Shown piece after piece: positions 9,301 through 34,158 of a DNA stretch of 35,409 nt; the stretch's first letter is position 1; the number at the start of each line of letters is the position of its first letter. The DNA lies in the NCBI GenBank assembly GCA_048213135.1, contig PS015067.1, positions 102,334 through 137,742 on the forward strand, in the 5' to 3' direction. The position numbers and the translations under genes were made by a program. This DNA is from Reclinomonas americana ATCC 50394. Taxonomy: Eukaryota. Below the pieces are notes generated by a model, which worked only from the letters and a program-made list of their open reading frames with translations, did not search any database and had not been told where the DNA came from.

Positions 9301-12300
9301 AGTACTCGCCCACCGCGTTCACGCCGCTGAACTGACTGGCTCCTTGCTGCGCGATGCACACAGCACAGGTCAGTGAGCAGGCTCCATCCAATCACCGCCA
9401 TACATACGACACGAACCACAGTGTGACCCAGCGACATGGCACCGGCAAGCACCGAGATGCCTCGACTCTGGCCACCAGTCTGCACACCAGAGTGAGAACA
9501 TCTCTATCAGCAAACTTTGTGAACGGGGACGCAACTGCCAGCATCGCAGTAGTGCGCGTGCCCGACAAAAAGTACTCGTACTCGGAGGACCGATTCACCG
9601 TCTCCACCATTTCGTGACGACTGGCGTGTGCGTACGTGCGATACTTTTCCATGCTGTCGTCTTCCGGTTCGTCGATAAACGACAACGAATCCTGCGAGGC
9701 ACGAACAACGGTGAGCATCAGTGCGCGCCACAGAATGCTGGCGTGGCGTGACGAAACATCATGAGCACTTGTCATCCTGTTCACAATGGCGAATCGCTGG
9801 CGAATGTCCTCGTCAATGACAGCAGGCATGATGGAGACGGCCGCCATGCGACCCTTGGTGCTGTGGTGCGATGCCAGTGAGGAGAGTACAACGGCAGCTG
9901 CAGTGCACCGGGGGGAAACGAAACGAAGATCGTGCATGATGCGCACTTGCCGCTCGACTGTCACGCGCCACCGACAGCCGCTTCTCGTAGGGCACCAGCA
10001 AGCGCCTGAGTGTGTACGTGAGTGAGTGGGTAAAGGAAAGTAGGCAGCTGTGTAGCTGAGGAACACAACTTGTAAAAGTTGGTCAGCTTGTGCGTCTGGT
10101 GCGCCTGCTCAAAGTACGTGTCGTCCTTGGGCCTGTCAAACAGCTGCTCTTCGGTGCATGTCGCCACGCCGGCGAGACCCTCCTCCTGATTGATGCGCGA
10201 AAAGAGCGATGCGTGCGGGTCCTCGAATTCCTCATTCGGCCGCACCCACCAGTCGTCACGGAGTCTGCGACACGAAATGAGCGCACATCCTTGCTGTGCC
10301 AACCCCGCTTCCGCTCCGACGCAACACTTGCATACTCTCCGATCCTTCGCCAAACTCGGTGGCAGTGTTGTGCAGATAGAAATCCGTGGGCAACTCCCAC
10401 AAGTGCGGCTTGCCAATCTCCGGCACGTAGTGTCCGAGGAACAAGTTGATGGCCTCTTGCTTCTCCGGATCCAAGAAGTTGTTGCTGTCGCACACGGCTG
10501 TCAGCTCAACGGATTATGCAAGGCGTGCGCAGCAACACACTCACCTGTAGAATCGTCGAATGTTGGACAGGATATCCCAGCTGACGCCACGGTGATGCAC
10601 ACCGGCACTGACAGTGCGTGAGCCGCCGTACTGCAGAGCAAAGTTGTCACCGGCCTCATCGTACAGATCCATCAGCGCCTGAATAATGTCCTCGTGGCCA
10701 ACGAACGAGGCGCGCGAGAAGGCGCCCAGTGCATGCAGCTACGCACAAGCGTCAAAGTGTAAGACGAAATGACTCGCACCCACAACCATAACACGCATGA
10801 ATGGTGGTGCGATCAAACCTGGTGCGCGAGCGCAGACTTGCCAAACAAAAACTGCGCAATGTTGGTGCGGTCGAGACAGTCCAGGCAGTTCGTGCGCAGC
10901 ACGCCACGCTGCAACGTGTATCCCTCGAATGGCTGCGAGGAGAAATCGTAGAGTCCGCTCTCCTCCAGCCAGTCCGCGCGCTCGACAATCACTTTGGAGC
11001 GGAAAATGTTGGTCTCCGAAATGGCTCCCTCACAAATGACGGCCATCGTAGTCAGTGCGCGACCGAGGTTGCGTTTGGCGGCGCCGCGGAAGTCCCACGA
11101 AATGTGCTGCAAATGGAGCAAGTGAGTGAGTCACGAGGAGCGGAGAAGTGGGTGAGAGAGTCGTGGTACAAGTCACCTGAATCTTCTTCTCGGCCGGCAG
11201 GAACTGGTTGAGATAATTGACCAGCTCGTCAAACTCGCGCACCAGCGGCATCTCTCGCGGCTTCTTCTCCTGTGGTTTTAGCAGATCGAGCAGAATCACT
11301 GGCATGCCGTAGCGTCGGAACAGATCCTGGAAGTGGAGACGCGCTGCCGTGCATTGCGGATCGTAGCGGCCCACTGTCGAAATGTAGAGTATGTGAGTGT
11401 CATCATCATCATCACCACCACCACATTGACTGCACGTTGTGTGCACGAAACTGATAATGGTGGGCTTGGGCGCCACAATGGCCTTCGATTGTGTATCGTG
11501 CGACCAGTAGACCGGCACCGAGCCACGCACTTGCACCACCGACGTGAACACGCCCTCGCGCTCGAATTCGTTCACCGACGACGAGTCGTACACAATCTGC
11601 TCGGTCTCCACCTCGTTGGCCACGTGGCCCTGATCGTTGATGCCACGCTTGAGGTACCGAGTACCGGCAAAGTAGCGCGAGCGGCGACCAATGAGCACAA
11701 TCGAGATGGANNNNNNNNNNNNNNNNNNNNNNNNNNNNNNNNNNNNNNNNNNNNNNNNNNNNNNNNNNNNNNNNAGTGTGGCAGTTGCTGTTATTGATCT
11801 TGATGTGCATCATGCAGGGTTCATTCGCTTCCTGCAAGGCTACTACATGATCCTGATCACGTCACGACGGTTGGTGGGCGCCATTGGGCCACACAAGATC
11901 TACGAGATCACCGACACGGAGCTGCTGCCGCTCTTCCACCCCGTGAAGCTGAAGAAGGGCTTGTTTTCGAAGGATCTCGAGCAGCGGTGAGAAGAAGCAG
12001 ACATGGGGAGAGAAGAAGAAAAACTCACGTTCTTGTATCCTCCTCGTCTCCGCAGCTACAAGGAGCTGTTCACGGGCTTTTCGCTGAACAAGAACTTCTA
12101 CTTTAGCTACACCTACGACCTCACACAGACGCTGCAGTACAACATGCAAATGTCGTCGTCGCCAACTGACGGCTCCGGTGGCAGGTATGTGAGCGCATCT
12201 CGCTTTTCATCTCTGGTGTGTTGCCTCACACCCTCCACCCTAGTTTTGCATCGCGCTTCCGTGGCCGTCCCGAGAGCAAGTTTGTGTGGAACACGTACCT

Positions 12301-13321
12301 GCTGCAGCCGCTGATTGCGTGTGTGGGCGAGTGCGAGTGGGTGCTTCGTGTGGTGCACGGCAATGTCGGCCACCGCAGTTGCGTCACCACTCACACTCCC
12401 CTCCGCTCTCCGCACTCCACGTTCTCACACACCCGAACAAGCGCAGCACTGAATATGTTTGGGCGCNNNNNNNNNNNNNNNNNNNNCTCTCTCTCATTTC
12501 TCAGCTCCTGCTCAGCTCCTGGTCAGCTGTGCATTGCTCTTCGTCACCCACTGTGCTTTTATCTCACGCTTTCTCACTCTCTCACACACAGGATCATGAA
12601 GCAGCCTAGCAGTAACTGAACAATCCCTGCATGATGGACATCAATAGCAGCAACTGCCACACACACACACACACTCTCTCTCTCTCTCCTTCTCAGCCTC
12701 CTGCTCAGCTGTGCATTGTCTACCTGCTTGTCTTTTCTCCCTTTCCCCTCTCCCTCTCCTCCCTTCCCCCCCTTCCTCTCCCCCAGCGCACCAAGGATTC
12801 CATAGGCCTTGGGCCCCCTCTGCAAGCCGCCGACATTGCGGCAGCCATGGTTGACCATCTCCATGAGATCACGCATCTCCTTGCGAGAGTACTCGCCCGG
12901 ATCCGCGACAATCTCCAGATCCGTGAGGTTGCCCGCACCCTCTCCCATCGTCGCATCTCCACTACCACTGCCACCAGCAGCCGCAGCTGCAGCACCAACA
13001 GCAGCCGCAGACGACGAACCGGAATCGCCCGCAGATTGCGGAAGATCTGTCTCCACAATGAGCACACATCGTCGCGCCACACTGTCATGCGCACACACGC
13101 ATAGACAAAGACCTGACTTGGCCACTACTCGCTCAATCTTGAGCACGCGAAACGTGCGTCGTGCATGTTCCGTTCCGACCAAGTAGTACCTCTGCACACA
13201 ACAGACATGATGATGAGCACACAATCACACACTTGCAACACACACACACACACACACTTACTTGTGGTGTCTCGTACAAGACAAACTTTTGCAGGCAAGA
13301 GGTGACTGGAGGCAAACGCAT
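6358..13321 (-). CDS. FIG4: FIG4/SAC3-type polyphosphoinositide phosphatase with C-terminal DEP and DUF547 domains (about 30 exons; internal block 11775-12466 inverted)
   Basis: FIG4-like N-terminus [26 protein letters not shown] motifs [34 protein letters not shown], catalytic [36 protein letters not shown] phase-consistent exon chain continues to DEP ([11 protein letters not shown]...[10 protein letters not shown]) and DUF547 ([44 protein letters not shown]). Stop at 6360-6358. Confidence 0.85.
11775..12466 (+). other. FIG4: Four FIG4 exons in the opposite orientation, bounded by N gaps (probably a mis-oriented contig)
   Basis: Encodes [15 protein letters not shown]...[16 protein letters not shown]...KFVWNTYLL...VVHGNV...LNMFGR. 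This is the SAC segment missing between the minus-strand exons ending AYGILG (about 12793) and starting [11 protein letters not shown] (11710). Confidence 0.9.
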
Positions 13322-16400: not shown

Positions 16401-19400
16401 GGGAACCGTGAATGCGTTGGTGAACGTGGCGCGCTTCACCGACATTCGTGTGCAGCGAGCTTCTGCCGCGGCCCTATGCTGCATCACTGACGGTGCGTGC
16501 GCATGCAACTGTCACGTGCACCGTCGATGCTAAATTTCGTCCACTCGACGCAGAATGCAACACATACTTGAAGGACATGGGTCGCGAAGCCGTCAACTCT
16601 CTCCTGCTCTTGCTCAACTGCAAGGACTCGGAGGTCGATCGGCAAGCCGTGCAAGCATTGTGCAACATTTCCGAGCGCAGTTGCGTGCGATTTACGCGGG
16701 TTGACATGCCTACAAGTGTGCGTCGCTCACTTTTCACGCCGTGCAGTGCCTTCGCTGCGGGCCTCCATTTGTTTGGACGAGAATTTCTCGCTGCTCTTGC
16801 GTCTGCTGCACAGCACCGAGAACACGATCCAGCTGCGCATGCTGGAGACACTGCGCAACATTGCGTTGGAACGTTGCGTCGTGGGTGGTTTTCTTTTGTG
16901 AAGAGAGAGAGAGAGGAGAGAGTTGCTGACGAATTGTGCAGCCGAGTGTGTACCGCTGCTGCGGTCGCTGCAAGTGGTGGAGAAGATTGCGCAATGCACC
17001 GCCCTGGTGATGGAGGACACGCAGCTGTTGGCCTGCCAAGTGGTCATGTTCTTGTTCCCCATGAGTGCGTCACTTAATGTCTTATTCTGCTGTGCTCCGA
17101 TGCTCGCCACTCATTGCCGTTCTCCTTTCCTGTGCTGCGCTACAGATGTCCACGAGCAACGTCTGGCTCCGTACGGACCCTTCTGGAGTGTGTTCCGACA
17201 ATTGTGCTACCACTCGGACGCATCTGCATCGCTCTCGCTGCGGTGGAACGAGGAGCTGGTGCGCAAGCTGTGCCTCCCGCTCGGCGTAGCGACGTACCCG
17301 ACCTGCGTGCATGCCCTTGCCGCGTGGTGCCTGGCGCATGTGTCATTCACTGGTATGGTTGTGTGACTGTGAGGTGCTGTGGTGCACGGTGCTCATTTGT
17401 CGGCATCTGCAGAAATGGAGTGCACCAAGTTGGTGGAGTGGATGGATCTGGGGTGCATTCGTGCCGGAGCCTCATCGTCGCACCTCTTGGTGCGTCACTT
17501 GTGCTCGCTCACACTACTCAATCTCGGCTACGAAGGTACGCGATGCGCTGCGTTCCTGTTGTGTAGCATTTACCTGATCCGAGTCTCGCAGAAATCAACG
17601 AGAGCTGCGCGCCGTCACAAACCGAGGACGAGTTGCCGGTCGGTGGCCTGGATGCATTGGGTCGCGAATTGTCGCTGCAGGAGGCAGAGATGCAGCGACA
17701 TCGCAGTCGCACCGACGCATTGTTTACATACCTGCAGTCGCACAAGGTGTGTGCATTTGTCACAAGTCTATGAGCAAGTAGGTACTCTGACTGACCGCCG
17801 AGGGGAGCGCAGACCATGCTGCACGAGATCGAGAGTCTGTTTGCGTTGAATGCACAACAGCAGGGTGATGCGGGTCGACCGGAAGACGTCCTTGCGCACT
17901 CGTATGAGCTGCGCGACAATCTGCGGCGCGATCTGCGCGAATTCCTGTTGTCGCCGTCGTCACAACCGACTCCACTCGGCTCGCCCGGCGAGTCCGCCCC
18001 GCTGAATGATGATTTCGAGGAACGCGATGAAGGTTTAGTTGTTTCGCTAAGTGCCATTTGCGCCTCTCAAGTTGTGCTCACCGTGTTTCATCGCGATAGT
18101 AGCGACTTTTGGTGTCCCCACCACACCCATGACTCCGCGTCCCATCGGCGAAGACAATCCACTGTACAACCGAGCCGTGGAAATCCAGGAGCTGAGGTGT
18201 GTATGTATCGCCATGCAGAAGAAGAGTCGTGTCAGCTGATGAAACTGTCGGCATCAAAAACAGGAGCGTTGGCCGTGAGCGACTCGGCGCTCTTGTCGCC
18301 CATTCGGACACAGCGGCGGCTGCATGCGGTGCTGTTCTCGAGCTGTGCTCCCTGCTTTCGTCGCAACACGCCGAGACACTGAGCAGGTGAGCTCGGGCGA
18401 ATGGTGGCGATGTTTCCGTCTTCGCTTTTCAGACTGACGTTGCGGAAGCAGTTCATCGGAATATCCGTCGTCGCTGCATGGCACCGCGGAGGAGCTGACA
18501 CACACGCTTAAGGTGTTCCAAGACTGGCTCACGGCGTGTGAAGAAGGTGTGGTGGTGATCTCCATTGTTCCTCACAGTCACACTCTTCTTTGTTCATCGT
18601 GATCCATGGCACAGAGCAACACCGAGCAGTGCAGCACACGATGCGCGAATACAAGAACCAACTCACCATCCAATGTGAGCGCTACGCAGCCTTGCAGAAG
18701 TGGGGTGCCAGCGCATTCGACATGTTGCTCTCAGTGTCGTACAAGTTGTGTCTCCGTTGACTCGTCTCTCCGTGTCGTGCATCTGCTGATCGGCCTCCGC
18801 GCAGGTACTTTGAGCATCGTCGTGAGGTGGTGTCGCTGGGCGACGTGTTTGCGCAGTACCGCAGCATGATGTGGTCGCTGGAGCGTGAGGACGTGGAGCG
18901 CACCGAGATTCTGACATTGATCAAGGACAAGGCTCGTCTCAAGGCGCAGTGGATCGACGAGCTTAAGCGTACCAATCGCATGGAGTACGAGCTGAAGGAG
19001 ATGGAGTTGAATGGTGCCGCGGCCAACACGCTGGCCGAGGTTTGTCTCGTGTCACCACCACTGTGGCGCGCATCATATTTGTTGCTTATTCACGAATGTG
19101 ACAGGCAAGTGCGCGAGTGGATGAGCAGCGCGACAAGGTCGCGGCGATTGCTCGCAAGCAGGAGAGGTACACAGTGCTTCCCGTTGACGCCTCCACATAG
19201 AAATGTGCTGCTGACACACACGTGTGCGCACTTGCAGCATTTCTACGCGCCTTCGCGCCCTCTCCATTTCCCATGCCGACACGGTGGTGCTGTGTGGAGC
19301 ACTGGAGGCCGATGCGGCAGCTGATGAGCGACTGGTGCGCTCAGGAGTTCTCGTGCGGCGGCGCATCTCCGAAGACTACGACATTATTCGTGAACTGCGA

Positions 19401-22400
19401 CGCGCTGTGGTGCGTTGGTTCTCCTGGCGTGTGATATTTATGACATGCTGAGCTCACATGAATGGCCGCTCGCAGTTCCTGGCCAAGCTCAAGGGCGATG
19501 GTCGACTAACGGTGCTGAAGGAGTTTTCGCGTTCCGAGGAGGCGCTGCTCGAGCACGAGGTTTGTGCCGATTCGACTGCATTCATGTGAAACACCGAGTT
19601 GTAACTCTGTGCGTGCAGGCCTGCGTCTTGTCGTCGCTGAAGCATCCGTTTGTGGTCAACATTGAGGCCGTCTTCAAGGATCGGCCAAAGGGCGGTCGCG
19701 ACTGGCAGAAAGCCTACATTCAGTTCCCGTACTACGAGGTGACGAAGTGGCACACATACTCGCTCTCTTTGTCACCCCAGCTCCGTCACTCATGCGCAAA
19801 TGCAGGGCGGAACGCTGCGCGAGTGGATGAGTTCCGGCGAACGTACTCCGTGGGAGCTGGAGTGTGTGTTCCGTCAGATTGTGCAGGGAGTCGGATACAT
19901 TCACAGTCAGCGCATCGTGCATCGGTTTGTGGAAGAGAGAGAGGGGAACGCGAGTGTGACGTGATCGGATGCTGACGGCAGTGGGTGGGTGCGCAGTGAT
20001 CTGAAGCCAGAAAATGTGTTCATGACACGATTGGGTACGCCGAAGATTGCCGACTTTGGATTCGCGCGCACCGAGAGTATCCTGCGCGACTCGCGCACCA
20101 GTTGCGTTCTCCCTGCTGTGCTGTCTTCACATCTCTATTGCGCCCCTGAAGACTCACTGTCGGCGGCAGGTGAATTCATTGGAACTCGTCCATTTGCGGC
20201 GCCAGAGGTCCTGCTGCCCATGTATGCGCGCTCGCTGTCGGGCTCCTCGAAGAAGGGCAAGCACATCCGCTCGTCGGCCGGGCGATCTCGAAGCGATGCC
20301 AGCAGCTCGCTGTCACCTTCGGTTCGTGCACTCTGCCTGTCTCCATTGCATTTCCCGTGCTCTGTCCTCATGCATCTCACAGAGCAAGTCGAATCCGTCG
20401 TCGTCTTCGTCATCGTCGTCGCCCATGTCGTCGTCGCGTGCCTCGTACAAGTCGGACATGTGGAGTCTCGGTGTGATGATTTTGGAGGCTCACTTCGGGC
20501 CGCTGGAGGATTCGTTGCGTCGATGCTGTGCTTCCGTTCATGGGACAGGGACTGACCCTTGCCTCGCCCGAAACAGACCACGTCCCAAGTCCGACGCACA
20601 CAGCGTCATTTATGCAACGCCACTGGCCGCCTCCAGTGTGTTTACCAACTACTTTACTCCGACCACGCCACCGCGGACCAAGGCACGTGTGCGGATCTCG
20701 CAGTTTCCTTGCTTTTTATCGTGGCAGTGCACTCACGCACCACAACACAGCAGAAGATCTCCCGTCGCTCCAGCTCGGGATCCCTTGGCAACCCGCCAGG
20801 CGCCGCCACTGGTCTGTTTGGCAAGATTGAGATCCCCGACAAGGATGCGCTGCGAGAGAACCTTCGCCGCGACATGACGGATGAGATGTTTGCGCAACTG
20901 AGGTGAGTCGGGCGTGTCGCACAAGAGTGCTGGTGTCACGCCTCGCTGATGTTTTCATACATCGTAGATCACTGCTTCGCCGCCTGCTGGCCATCGATCC
21001 GCGCCACCGCCCAAGTGCCATTGAGTTGCTGGCTCATCCGTACTTTTCCACCCCGCATGCGCACATGCTGCACCGCGATCGCTTCTTGATTCGCAGGTGC
21101 GGGCCCGTGCTTCAGTGTTCACGTGTGTCTGTCTGTCTGTGTGCACTCACGTGTCGGCACACAGCGACGACAAGATTCGACAGATCCGCGAGGTGTGCGA
21201 CGAAAAGTCCCGCGACATCCCGCCCATCGAGCTCACCGTGTCGCGGGCCCACATTGTCAATGACGTGGTGGAGGTGCGAACGCACACACGCGTGCGAGTC
21301 GGTTGTGCACTAATGTGTAATATCTAACAACCCTACTATTTTTCCACGCGCGGCAGGTCTTTAGCGCCATGACACTCGACGAAGACATGCTGGCACCGCT
21401 GCACACGCAGCTGCTGGAGGACAGTGGCGAGAGCGGCGAGGACATGGGTGCCGTGTCGGACGACATGTTTACCGAATTCTTCACGCGTGTTCTCGATCCG
21501 AAGCTGGGGTACGTCGGCGTGTGGAATGCGTTTATTATCCAAGCTTGGTGTGCTCATCTTGCGTTGTGTTGCAGCTTGTTCGAGGCGTCGTGCGGCATCA
21601 ACGGTGCCGACCCAGACAGCGAGTTGTATTTGCCGGTGCCAAACACCGATGCTGAGTTTGCGTACGAGAGTGTTGGTGCGGCGCTGCTCAAGTGCCTCAT
21701 TGACAACCGCCCGGTGCACGCGCGATTTGCGCCGTCGCTCTTCAAGTACTTGCTCGACATTGACCCGTCGTACACCGATCTAGAGGTTGGCTGCCGCGCG
21801 CATTGATATGTGTGTGTGTGCGCTCGACAGTAGCTGACCATTGCTCGCGTCGCAGTTGTACGATCCGCAGTACGCACACAACCTGCGCGAGTACGTGCTG
21901 CACAAGACGATCACGGAGCCGACGTATTTGCACTTTATCAGTGACACGGGTGAAGAGAAGGAGCTGAGCGAGGAGAACAAGTACGAGTACGTGAGGAAAC
22001 AGGTGCGGTTGCAGTTGCTTCTTGTGGAAGTCAAAGAAGTACGACCTCGCTCACTCTCCTCTGGTCCACAGATTTACGAAAAGTTGATTGGCTGCCGGAA
22101 ACAGCATCTGGAGGCCATCAAGCGCGGCTTCACACGCGTCAACATGTCGTTGTGGCTGAAGGGTCTCAACTGCACCGAGCTCATGTTGTTGCTGTGCGGC
22201 GAGGACTACTTGGACTCGGACATGGTGCTGCAGAATGTGGTCTTCTCGTCGTCCTTCCCCGAAGGGTCACCGACCCCGGACTATGCGCGGAGATTCCTGC
22301 GTGATTGCGATTCAACAGGTGTGCGGTTTGATTGGTGGGGCGCTGTTGCTCTTTGTCATAGTCGCACGACTCAACAGAGAGCGTCACTCACAGCTCTGCG

Positions 22401-29447: not shown

Positions 29448-32404
29448 CTATCGAGCCTTCCAGCATTCCAGCAGAAACTCGGAGAACTCGTCTGGTTCGT
29501 CGGCGACGCCACCGGCCAGGTGCACCACGGCTTCCACTTGAGGATTCGAGGTGCTGATGCAGGGGGTGAGAGAAGGTGTGGAGCAGGAGCGAGGAAAGAG
29601 ACACGCACCGACGTAATCGTTGGACCAGCGCGGTGATGAACGCTTCGGTGAAGCCGGGATGGGCGCGCTCGACTTGCACCAGTTCGCGCTCCACTTCGTG
29701 TGTGTCGCAACCGGTCTGCCGGCGTGCAAACTCGTGAGTGACGCGTCGAATTCAACGCAACAAGTGAGCGAGACGAACCTCCTCGAGCGCCGGTAGAACG
29801 TAGTTGGTCAGCAGCGAATTAGACGTAGCAATGGTGGTCTCCGACCGGACTCTGCCGATCACGTACGAATCAGCCACACGGATGTCACCTCGCGCGCACA
29901 CCCCATCACTCACCGCTCAGGTCTCGGCACGGAGGACGACTCGCCGGGTGCCGGTGACATGCCACCACCATTAGCTCGCTGCTGCGGTGTGGGAGACATC
30001 TGACAAAGGGGGAGGTGAGTGGGGAAAGACACGGAAAACGAGTGGACGACCGGAACGCAACATCGACTTGTGCACCGCCCAGTGGACTGAACCGTGGCGG
30101 TGGAATGGGCGACGGCAGCTGCAACACCGACGGCGACGCGGATGGCGTCACAGAGGCTGTGGCCGACGAGACCACGGATGAAGCGGCCGCGGACAAGTGC
30201 GACGGCGGCTGCGGGGAGGGTGCCGGTGAGGCGGTGGCCGATGAGCCGCCAGACGCTGCGCCAGGCGTGTCGCGTGGTCGCATGGTGAAACTCCACCCCG
30301 GATCGGAGGAGTCGGCGCCCGAGGCCGAACCCGACGGTGGGTTGCTGGAGCGTGTGGTGAGTGATGAGGTGTGGGAACGGGACAAGGGAAGGAGACGAAA
30401 CAGACGTCCCGGATCGTCGTCGTCAGAGTCGCGATTGGCCTCGTACATCTCTCTCCGCTCAATGAGGTCCACCAGCAGGGAGGTTTTCTTGGCGCTTTTG
30501 ATGAAGCGGTGCTTCAGAAGCTCGCGGGCGGTTGGTCTCTGAGAGGGGGGAAGGAGGGAGAAAGAGAGCAGGGTCAGCGCGCAACGAGAGAAGGGAGGCG
30601 AGTGCAACGAGGGAGGCGAGTGCAACGAGGGAGACGAGTGCAACGAGGGAGGCGAGTGCAACGAGGGAGGCGAGTGCAACGAGGGAGGAGTGCAACGAGG
30701 GAGACGAGTGCAACGAGGGAGACGAGTGCAACGAGGGAGACGAGTGCAACGAGGGAGACGAGTGCAACGAGGGAGACGAGTGCAACGAGGGAGACGAGTG
30801 CAACGAGGGAGACGAGTGCAACGAGGGAGGAGTGCAACGAGGAAGGAGTGCAACGAAGAAGGCAAGCGCCGACGGACTGCATGATACGAAATCCGAAGTA
30901 TCACGGGGAAACGCAACTGCTTCTGGCTCCTTCTGCAGACAGGCCGCCACAAACTCCTTGAAGGAGCGCGAGAAGTTGCCCTCCAGCTGTGGCGGTTGCG
31001 ACTTGGGAATGACAAAGAGAGCACGCATCGGGTGGAGGTCCGAGTACGGCGGTGCGCCTTTGGCCATCTCAATCGCGGTGATGCCCAACGACCAAATGTC
31101 ACACTGTGCCGACACTGGTGAGGAAAAGGCCAGTGACAAGCACTCTCTGCAGCAAGCGAACCTTCTCATTGTAGCCCGACGTTTGACGGATGACCTCACT
31201 GCATGCCAATCGGTTAGAAGTCGCCAGGAGGGAGACTAGGGAAGGATCAGCAGTAACGCAACGCTGCGGAGGGAGGGAAGAGTGAGTGTGAGGTGAGACA
31301 AAGGAGAGGGGTGTAGTATTGCAGCAAAAAAACGCAACGAGCCATCCAGAACGGTGTGCCAACAAATGTGTGTCTCTTGGTGCGGTTTTCCGAGAGCTGC
31401 AGAGCGAGGGTGAGATCAACGGAGGGTACGAACCCGACAGATACACACGTTCACCTGCGCAGCGACACCAAAATCGGCAAGCTTCACGTCACCGTTGGAG
31501 GCCACGAGAATGTTGGCCGCTGCATGATTTTCCCCCCGACAATTCAGCATGCAGTGCAAGTTGCAAACACCCCGTGCTCCTGCATTTCGGAGGAGGAGCA
31601 AAAAACGTACGTACCCTTGATGTCGCGATGCAGCTTTTGTGACGAATGCAGGTACTCCAGCGCCTGGTGCGCAACAGTGAGCAAGGCGGACAGCGAGCAG
31701 CGCACGTGGAAGAACAATACCTTGAGCGTCTCGCGCAGGATCACGGCAATGTACATTTCCTGCAACGGGTTCCGAGTGAAACAGAATGCGGAGAGAGGGG
31801 TGGGAAAGGGAGGCAGAGAGGAGAGAGAGAGAGAGAGGAGAAGGAGGAGGAGAAGGAGGAGGAGGACGGTGGGAGACGAAGGGAANNNNNNNNNNNNNNN
31901 NNNNNCCTCTCGTGTGTGTGCCCCTCACCAAATCATGCACAGAACCCCCCTCCAAGTACTCCATAATGATCCACAAATGCTGACCGACCACCACCGAACC
32001 ATGAATGGCGACGACCAGTGGTGACGCACACTCCAACATGACATGAATCTCTCGTTGTATCTCCTCAATCTCCTCCTCCGCCTCCTCCAAGTCAATCACT
32101 TTGATGGCCACACTGGCGCCACTCTCCTTGTCGCGACTGTGCGCATGTGTGTGTGTAAGAGAGAGAGAGAGAAGAGGGGAAGGGGAGAGTGTGTGTGTGT
32201 GTAACGCAACGCGCGCCACACTTCGCCAAAGCTTCCCTGCCCAATCTTCTCCACGAGCTCAAATTGCTCAGCATGCACACTGCGATGTGCGCGCTGTGTG
32301 TGTGTCATGTGTGAGTTTCATAGAGTGTGTGTGCAAGTGTGTGTGAGAGAGAGTGTGAGAACCATGGCAGCGGAGGAGGCGCCGGAGGATTTCCGCTTCA
32401 GCAT
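29448..32404 (-). CDS. STE20-family GCK-III kinase (MST3/MST4/STK25/SvkA-like) with a C-terminal dimerisation-type helical region
   Basis: [126 protein letters not shown]-terminus [13 protein letters not shown]...FLLECWKAR. Confidence 0.93.
30600..30858. repeat. Intronic minisatellite, about 15 copies of an 18-bp unit GAGTGCAACGAGGGAG(A/G)C (a few 16-bp variants)
   Basis: Direct tandem copies start at about 30600, 30618, 30636 and so on to 30846, inside the 379-nt kinase intron 30917-30539. Confidence 0.95.
31263..31263 (-). other. Predicted single-nucleotide exon (C) in the GCK-III kinase gene
   Basis: Minus strand: ATG GCT C|gttgcg..75 nt..ccgcag|C|gttgcg..64 nt..catgcag|T GAG GTC. This restores MAPEV. 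Confidence 0.8.
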
Positions 32405-33041: not shown

Positions 33042-34158
33042 ATGACTGCGAAGGTCTGCTTGCTGCGCTGTTGCAGTAGCTACTGTCTCACCACGCATGC
33101 GATCATCGTAGGTCTTGGTTGGTCACACGGGTGCGGTCATGTCTGTTGTCGTCACTCCCGACGGTCTTCACGCAGTCAGCGGGAGTGCGGATAAGACAGT
33201 GCGGGTGTGGTCATTGGCGAGTGGGCAGGAGGTGCGACAGCTGGAGGGACACCTTGGGGAGGTGACGTGCGTTGCTGTCACCCCCAATGGCCAGCACGTT
33301 TTGAGTGGGAGTAAGGACGTCACGATCCGGGTTTGGTCGTTGGAGAGTGGCGAGGAGGTACGACGGTTGATGGGGAACATTGGCGGCGTGCTATGCGTGG
33401 CTGTAACACCCGACGGGCTGTGCTTGGTGAGTGGGATTGAGGATGAGGAAGAATGTGAGATGATGTGGGTTCGGTCTCTGGCGACTGGCGCCGAGTTGCG
33501 CCATTTCGACGGACACCCATGTGGAATGCTCGCTGTTGTGGCTGTTCCCGACAGTCTTTGCGTTTTGAGTGGTGGTTGGGACGGCACGGTGCGTGTGTGG
33601 TCGCTGGCGAGTGGCGAGGAGATGCGACGGTTGGAGGGCCACGGGCGCGAGGTGCGGTCTGTCGTCGTCACTGCCGACGGGCAGCACGTTGTGAGCGGAA
33701 GCGCAGATGGGACCGTTCGAGTGTGGTCACTGGCGAGTGGTGAGGAAACGAAACGGCTGGTGGGTCACACCCGGCCGGTGTGGACTGTCGCCGCGACCTC
33801 TGACGCTCAGCACATCGTGAGCGGGGGTTGTGACGAGACGGTGCGAGTGTGGTCGCGGGTGAGTGGCAAAGAAGAGCACCGATTGGAGGGGCACACTTCA
33901 TTCGTGTACTCTGTCGCTGTCACTCCTGATGATCAGCACGTAGTGAGTGGGAGTGGTGACAAGACCATTCGGGTTTGGTCCACGCCGTGCGGTCTCGCTC
34001 GGCGTGAACTGAACAGTGCTCGTCTGGCGGCTACTAGTGTGAACGAGATGCTGCTTGAAGCCGACCAGTACCACGAGTGGATTCTGGTCGATGTGGTGCT
34101 GCGGTGCTTCATCGTGGGTGAGGCTGAGGCTATCGAATACCGCGCGCCTGGATGGTAA
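33042..34158 (+). CDS. Seven-repeat WD40 beta-propeller protein with highly similar repeats
   Basis: MTAK|intron|VLVGHTG..., then seven ~42-aa repeats of consensus GH..V.SV.VTPDG..VVSGS.D.TVRVWSLASGEE.RRLE and a short helical tail. Only one intron. Stop at 34156-34158. Confidence 0.88.

Follow-up and report, generated by a model that had tools for sequence, protein, structure and literature searches.

The kinase locus and its apparently split proline codon

The window, a stretch of 35,409 nucleotides (nt) from contig PS015067.1 of Reclinomonas americana ATCC 50394, is GC-rich eukaryotic DNA with short introns and a GC content of ∼0.44–0.61 per 2-kilobase (kb) segment. Its reverse strand carries a gene for an MST/GCK-III-type STE20 protein kinase, modelled from reading frames and homology. 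The proline codon of the APE motif of this kinase appears to be divided by two introns that leave a single base, a C at position 31263, between them. As modelled, the gene starts with an ATG at 32404, ends with a TAG at 29450–29448 and consists of at least 15 exons. The features on which the analysis rests are as follows.

29448..32404, reverse strand: MST/GCK-III-type STE20 protein kinase gene
31339..31396, reverse strand: exon E7, 19 residues and the first base (C) of the proline codon; ends TGG ATG GCT C
31264..31338, reverse strand: intron S7, 75 nt, phase 1, 76% pyrimidine
31263, reverse strand: proposed one-nucleotide exon, the C in the middle of the proline codon (C-C-T) of the APE motif
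31199..31262, reverse strand: intron S8, 64 nt, phase 2, 64% pyrimidine
31162..31198, reverse strand: exon E9, starting with T (third base of the proline codon) and then GAG GTC ATC; 12 residues follow
30918..31103, reverse strand: exon E10 (CDIWSLG...QKEPEA), which anchors the downstream frame

Exons of the gene match the Pkinase profile with E-values of 2.5e-11 and 3e-07. A protein search with E10 returned 710 relatives, many of them named serine/threonine-protein kinase 24/25/MST4, with a top identity of 82% over E10. No identical protein was found among the 710, so the organism is not represented in that protein collection. Membership in the GCK-III (MST3-MST4-STK25) group was judged by a kinase domain closest to STK24/25/MST4 together with a C-terminal dimerisation domain common to PDCD10; the match of the C-terminal exon to the PDCD10_N-type profile PF20929 is weak (E-value of 0.0027, 17.7 bits, below the cut-off of 19.8). 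The catalytic G-loop, VAIK, HRD and DFG motifs are intact, and the frame is kept at all of the other 13 modelled junctions.

S7 opens with the octamer GTTGCGTT (31338–31331) and ends in CCGCAG. It contains a CTCAC branch-like motif, with its A at 31283 (19 nt from the 3′ end), and the acceptor CAG at 31266–31264 is preceded by no other AG within the intron. S8 has the same donor octamer (31262–31255), a CTAAC branch-like motif with its A at 31214 (15 nt from the 3′ end), and an acceptor CAG at 31201–31199, in a unit ending ATGCAG. The junction between them, CAG-C-GTTGCGTT at 31266–31255, has the AG-N-GT arrangement of a one-nucleotide exon, with a complete intron on each side. When E7 is joined straight to E9, the frame shifts and the first stop codon is reached only in a later exon. 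Inclusion of the C gives the codon CCT and restores GTPFWMAPEV, with CDIWSLG following later. As the bases at the exon ends are not part of homopolymers (the C lies between T and G, the T between G and G), a miscounted base at these positions is unlikely. An earlier, sequence-only reading of this DNA had delimited the end of E7, the 75-nt unit, the single C, the 64-nt unit and the start of E9, and its boundaries and coordinates are correct base for base. Its claim that direct joining of E7 and E9 causes a frameshift was borne out by the translations with and without the C.

S7 (75 nt) is stop-free in the E7 frame, and the C, S8 and the following T (66 nt together) are stop-free in the E9 frame, so that a transcript keeping just one of the two introns would remain in frame on one side. 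Probably this is coincidental and reflects the high GC and pyrimidine content of the sequence.

Conservation of the proline and enumeration of splice forms

Homology fixes both reading frames up to the junction: E7 ends in WMA and E9 starts with EV, where homologues run WMA-PEV. Compared with these uninterrupted homologues, the two flanking exons show a phase offset of exactly one nucleotide, with no residue gained or lost. All 104 homologues that cover the site have a proline there and read W-M-[A/S]-P-E; the remaining 16 of the 120 homologues listed are fragments without the region. In a set of 80 metagenome loci (at most 80% identity over the full exon), the motif is contiguous in 58, one locus (L043) has an interruption that directly follows the Met codon, and 21 give no clear reading. 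The sequence-only reading had suggested comparing intron positions in orthologues; an interruption inside the proline codon was found in none of the 59 readable loci of this set, which holds no close relative.

Splice forms were enumerated from the start of E7 to the end of E9, allowing GT or GC donors, AG acceptors and one or two introns with a minimum length of 20 nt. The enumeration yielded 73 in-frame, stop-free solutions, exactly one of which (removal of 31338–31264 and 31262–31199) restores GTPFWMAPEV. The others delete FWMA, insert 1–39 residues or replace the proline. Among the 73, the motif claimed earlier for the form with the C is restored in that form alone.

Three of the other solutions are the obvious competitors. 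S8 alone could be removed and S7 translated, giving a 25-residue insertion with alanine in place of the proline; a GC donor 3 nt downstream could be used, giving APFEV; or a 154-nt intron could be removed together with FWMA. The length of S7, which is a multiple of three, and its lack of stop codons would permit the first of these. However, each form breaks the motif found in all 104 homologues covering the site, and the 58 related loci in which the motif is contiguous show no insertion at this position. Moreover, S7 lies with its 76% pyrimidine outside the exon range of 0.41–0.57 and carries donor, branch and acceptor signals. We regard all three as highly improbable.

A single intron of 139 nt that kept one of the border bases would produce CGT (Arg) and not a proline codon. 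This counts against a single non-GT-AG intron, one form of a repair outside ordinary splicing, the others being base-inserting RNA editing and translational frameshifting. Nothing direct speaks for such a repair, although the lineage is unsampled and the best matches of a neighbouring gene, among them proteins of Euglena and Diplonema that share its domain architecture, are just 49% identical. We give it next to no credence, as all 25 introns curated in the window (see below) are GT-AG and an AG-C-GT junction with full signals makes extra mechanisms unnecessary.

Intron population and two classes of donor site

The curated set comprises the introns of the STE20 kinase gene (29448–32404, reverse strand) and of a second kinase gene (19040–21356, forward strand). 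All 25 are GT-AG introns with a median length of 66 nt, and 23 fall within 55–95 nt. The two exceptions both belong to the STE20 kinase gene: S3 (169 nt), which holds a run of N, and S10 (379 nt), which holds a tandem repeat. S7 and S8 each fall within the main length mode, whereas their combined span of 140 nt, taken as one intron, would be about twice the local median. Most curated introns have a YTNAY branch motif 12–23 nt from the 3′ end. The pyrimidine fractions of S7 and S8 (0.76 and 0.64) compare with a mean of 0.60 for the other introns and 0.41–0.57 for exons.

The octamer GTTGCGTT opens six of the 25 curated introns and is spread over both genes. It occurs nine times in the window against 1.44 expected, a count reached in none of 100 shuffles, and six of its seven occurrences on the transcribed strand of the two genes are frame-consistent donors. 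The base preceding the intron (exon position −1) divides the donors into two classes: it is C, A or T at all six GTTGCGTT donors and G at all 19 others, which are GTKNGT-like (Fisher p = 5.6e-6). Because of this split, a single position weight matrix for the donors is uninformative. Other GTTGCGT sites in the window also lack a G at −1, with one exception that is antisense to an exon, and two of these sites directly follow tblastn matches, where donors would be expected. The absence of a G at −1 implies that the GTTGCGTT class does not lean on exon sequence, as a one-nucleotide exon requires.

The octamer presumably pairs poorly with the canonical 5′ end of U1. Among the papers listed by a literature search, judged from titles and the starts of abstracts, GTTGCG or GUUGCG was not found as a splice motif. 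Scans of the window for tRNA genes and Rfam families gave no match, and hence no small nuclear RNA (snRNA) gene for testing the pairing of the donor. A possible, though tentative, wider interpretation is that 5′ splice sites of a second class, independent of the exon, exist in this genome: H|GTTGCGTT, beside G|GTKNGT. Such a class might be read differently, by a variant U1, in a bulged register or in a manner driven by U6/U5. If so, introns would be free of exon context, one-nucleotide or other ultra-short exons would recur in this unsampled lineage and not be a single oddity, and S7/S8 would be the extreme outcome of two gains that took place independently, 1 nt from each other. The two donor classes offer a handle on how the organism reads its 5′ splice sites.

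Chance expectation

The window holds 15 intron-like units with a GTTGCGT donor, compared to a shuffle mean of 1.14. One adjacent pair of such units is present, S7/S8, and none occurs in 100 shuffles. With a loose donor, G|GT[ATG], two adjacent pairs were found; shuffles average 0.53, and 38 of the 100 contain one or more, so this count is not above chance. One loose-scan pair (21714–21783 and 21786–21855, forward strand, separated by AG) was discarded as a false positive, its first unit being coding sequence for a HECT domain. The scan for AG-N-GT between short introns that had been suggested earlier, run here within the window, thus sets the GTTGCGT-donor pair apart from shuffled sequence, whereas the bare 10-mer YAGNGTTGCG occurs at the chance level. 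What goes beyond chance is the placement of this sequence in a 140-nt gap that separates out-of-phase exons, where each side has a full set of intron signals.

Assembly quality and the integrity of the gene

The main rival explanation is an assembly error combined with a coincidental pair of splice sites. According to this explanation, which we consider unlikely, the assembly lacks a C, either as the last base of E7 or as the first of E9, the gap is a single intron of ∼140 nt, and the internal CAG-C-GTTGCGTT has no function. The sequence is a draft scaffold with seven runs of N and one misoriented block, GTTGCGTT can sit unused in an intron (S13), and introns of 169 and 379 nt do exist in the kinase gene. 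However, an error would require two coincidences that are independent of each other. One is the loss of a base at either of just two positions, neither of them in a homopolymer. The other is an internal YAG-N-GTTGCGTT that leaves both halves at modal length, with a well-spaced branch motif and, as N, the one base in four that gives proline. An internal YAGNGTTGCG is expected ∼0.002 times per 140 nt, and adjacent pairs of the donor class are absent from all 100 shuffles.

Several observations weigh against a one-nucleotide exon. The assembly is gapped, with the seven N runs falling in 35 kb and one of them lying 550 nt away within the kinase gene itself. In a neighbouring gene encoding a DEP-Sac-DUF547 protein, residues ∼96–231 are on the forward strand (11814–12361) and residues from ∼237 onward on the reverse strand (11707 down to 7021), so that the block between the N runs at 11711–11774 and 12467–12486 is inverted relative to its gene. 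This is most likely a misorientation in the scaffold; both the N runs and the inverted block are scaffold-level faults. An orthologue with the same structure was not found among the 80 metagenome loci, none of which is closely related. The 10-mer YAGNGTTGCG proves nothing by itself, since it is expected about once per window (one match against 0.98 expected over ∼70.8 kb, both strands; such a match is present in 62 of 100 shuffles). Not every copy of the octamer serves as a donor, since the seventh one on the transcribed strands (29754–29761) lies inside S13, 17 nt downstream of a homology-supported donor. Finally, two spliceosomes cannot plausibly assemble together on sites 1 nt apart, and the efficiency of splicing may be low.

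S13 (29716–29778, reverse strand) begins GTTCGT after a G. The GTTGCGTT within it may serve as a tandem or alternative donor; its use would shift the frame off the weak PDCD10_N-type match of the next exon.

The N run at 31886–31905 lies in S3 (31760–31928, reverse strand), where ∼8 residues expected after ...GGSVHDL and before EMYIAVIL... do not appear in the model. The gap may conceal a small exon. The absent residues would also be compatible with a broken or decaying copy of the gene, or with a form containing the C that is only minor, the C being usually skipped in a pseudogene or in a regulated, unproductive splice. Skipping the C yields a long frameshifted tail with a late stop, and juxtaposed splice sites should compete. 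We consider this improbable: the other 13 junctions are in frame, the catalytic motifs are intact, E10 shares up to 82% identity with active homologues, and the absent residues coincide with the N run, most simply as an assembly gap.

Proposed splicing route

The exact anatomy, the unique solution, the conserved proline, the ordinary flanking introns, the donor class and the precedent of known cases together favour a genuine one-nucleotide exon. We therefore think it likely that the C at 31263 is a nuclear spliceosomal exon of this length, as the sequence-only reading had proposed. That proposal has gained from the single motif-restoring solution and the normal-looking introns, and it remains a sequence-based prediction.

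S7 and S8 would be two independent, ordinary short introns of the U2 type flanking the middle base of the proline codon. Each would be recognised across itself, by intron definition, through purely intronic signals: the octamer GTTGCGTT, a CTNAC motif 15–19 nt from the 3′ end, and CAG. As the 3′ splice site of S7 (CAG) overlaps the exon-side footprint of the S8 donor, the two introns would most likely be removed one after the other. Either order of removal is predicted to give the same mRNA, GCT C-C-T GAG (A-P-E), because the remaining intron then has a normal-sized exon beside it. Skipping of the C, by splicing of the S7 donor to the S8 acceptor, would produce a frameshifted and presumably unproductive transcript. 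Ordered splicing by intron definition is a reasonable inference from the arrangement of the signals; we infer likewise the route, the sequence in which the introns leave and what becomes of the skipped form.

Other types of intron were considered for the same region. U12-type introns have the donor consensus RTATCCTT and a TCCTTAAC-like branch site. This type was rejected on the donor GTTGCGTT and on the branch motifs CTCAC and CTAAC, which are as in the other 19 introns. A stwintron was rejected as the signals of S7 and S8 are uninterrupted and either order of removal gives the same product, and a zero-nucleotide recursive splice site as one base is kept here.

Origin of the two introns

The identical donors of S7 and S8 had been taken earlier as a hint that one intron arose from the other, a suggestion that did not hold up. 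Outside the octamer and CAG, S7 and S8 resemble each other no more than background (rank 144 among 253 intron pairs, with 54% of shuffles scoring as high), and GTTGCGTT is a common donor type in the curated set, so a duplication was rejected. Among the compared intron pairs, no likeness beyond the octamer was seen that would indicate an introner or repeat-family origin of the GTTGCGTT introns. A target-site duplication, as an account of the repeated C+GTTGCGTT, was rejected by inspection, since it implies an out-of-frame ancestor. The simplest scenarios would be that both introns were gained independently, 1 nt from each other, or that one was gained beside an intron already present.

Comparison with known one-nucleotide exons

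One-nucleotide exons are known but very rare, as the sequence-only reading had stated. In the papers examined, they are documented in land-plant APC11 (PMC4674806), plant VPS55 (PMC8831610) and Fusarium CYP621A (PMC12940212). The authors of the Fusarium study call their case the second example (PMC12940212).

The arrangement in CYP621A is the closest to that of the kinase. In both, a single base between AG and GT forms the centre of a codon that belongs to a highly conserved motif (Gly of PKG in CYP621A, Pro of APE here), the flanks are of phase 1 and phase 2, and the host is a short-intron organism in which the whole span (139 nt in CYP621A, 140 nt here) has roughly double the length of the median intron. 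The exon base in CYP621A is a G, which fits both splice consensuses (AG-G-GT), whereas it is a C in the kinase, and the kinase donors of this class never have a G at −1. The kinase case further differs in the 8-nt donor class on both introns and in the host lineage. The CYP621A exon is kept in 20 orthologues and was confirmed by reads from the Sequence Read Archive (SRA), while the kinase case is known from genomic sequence.

In APC11, as proposed for the kinase, the reading frame needs a constitutive one-nucleotide exon and all signals are intronic (PMC4674806, PMC8831610). The identity of the base is irrelevant to splicing in APC11, and the authors favour intron definition with sequential removal (PMC4674806). 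The APC11 introns, however, are longer and unequal, with the exon base 333 nt into a span of 422 nt; the exon was proven by complementary DNA (cDNA) sequencing and mutagenesis, and it lies in an N-terminal region and not in a catalytic-domain motif (PMC4674806, PMC8831610). VPS55 resembles the kinase, as interpreted here, in its one-nucleotide exon and in a well-conserved donor (6 nt in VPS55) directly after it; it differs in being partly alternative, with an intron-retention isoform, conserved across land plants and verified at the RNA level (PMC8831610). Recursive sites and stwintrons likewise juxtapose a 3′ and a 5′ splice site and clear one region by consecutive reactions (PMC5639578, PMC5587772, PMC4674806). 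Recursive sites keep no nucleotide, unlike the kinase, which would keep one base (PMC4674806), and in stwintrons the internal intron breaks a splice signal of the outer one, whereas the signals of S7 and S8 are complete (PMC5639578, PMC5587772).

If confirmed, the exon would be among very few nuclear exons of one nucleotide and would be the first such case for protein kinases, as well as for a protist lineage without a close sequenced relative. It would also indicate that splice-site recognition can be wholly intronic even where the exon base, here C, fits neither consensus. Gene finders would wrongly annotate this kinase as frameshifted or truncated. Pairs of out-of-phase exons lying about twice the modal intron length apart provide a signature that can be searched for.

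Neighbouring genes and repeats

The DEP-Sac-DUF547 protein has a best match of 49% identity, and its domain architecture recurs in proteins of Euglena, Diplonema and Naegleria, among others. The second, divergent kinase gene (19000–21400, forward strand) has at least 11 short introns of 59–83 nt, and its activation segment, ...GTRPFAAPEV, is contiguous within one exon. The STE20 kinase gene adjoins, head to head, an uninterrupted open reading frame of 348 residues (33112–34155, forward strand) that encodes a WD40 β-propeller protein (WD40 E-value of 2.8e-64). Intron S10 consists mostly of an 18-nt unit repeated 15.1 times with 95% matches (30592–30856); on the transcribed strand, this unit contains CGTTGCAC, which is near the donor octamer in sequence.

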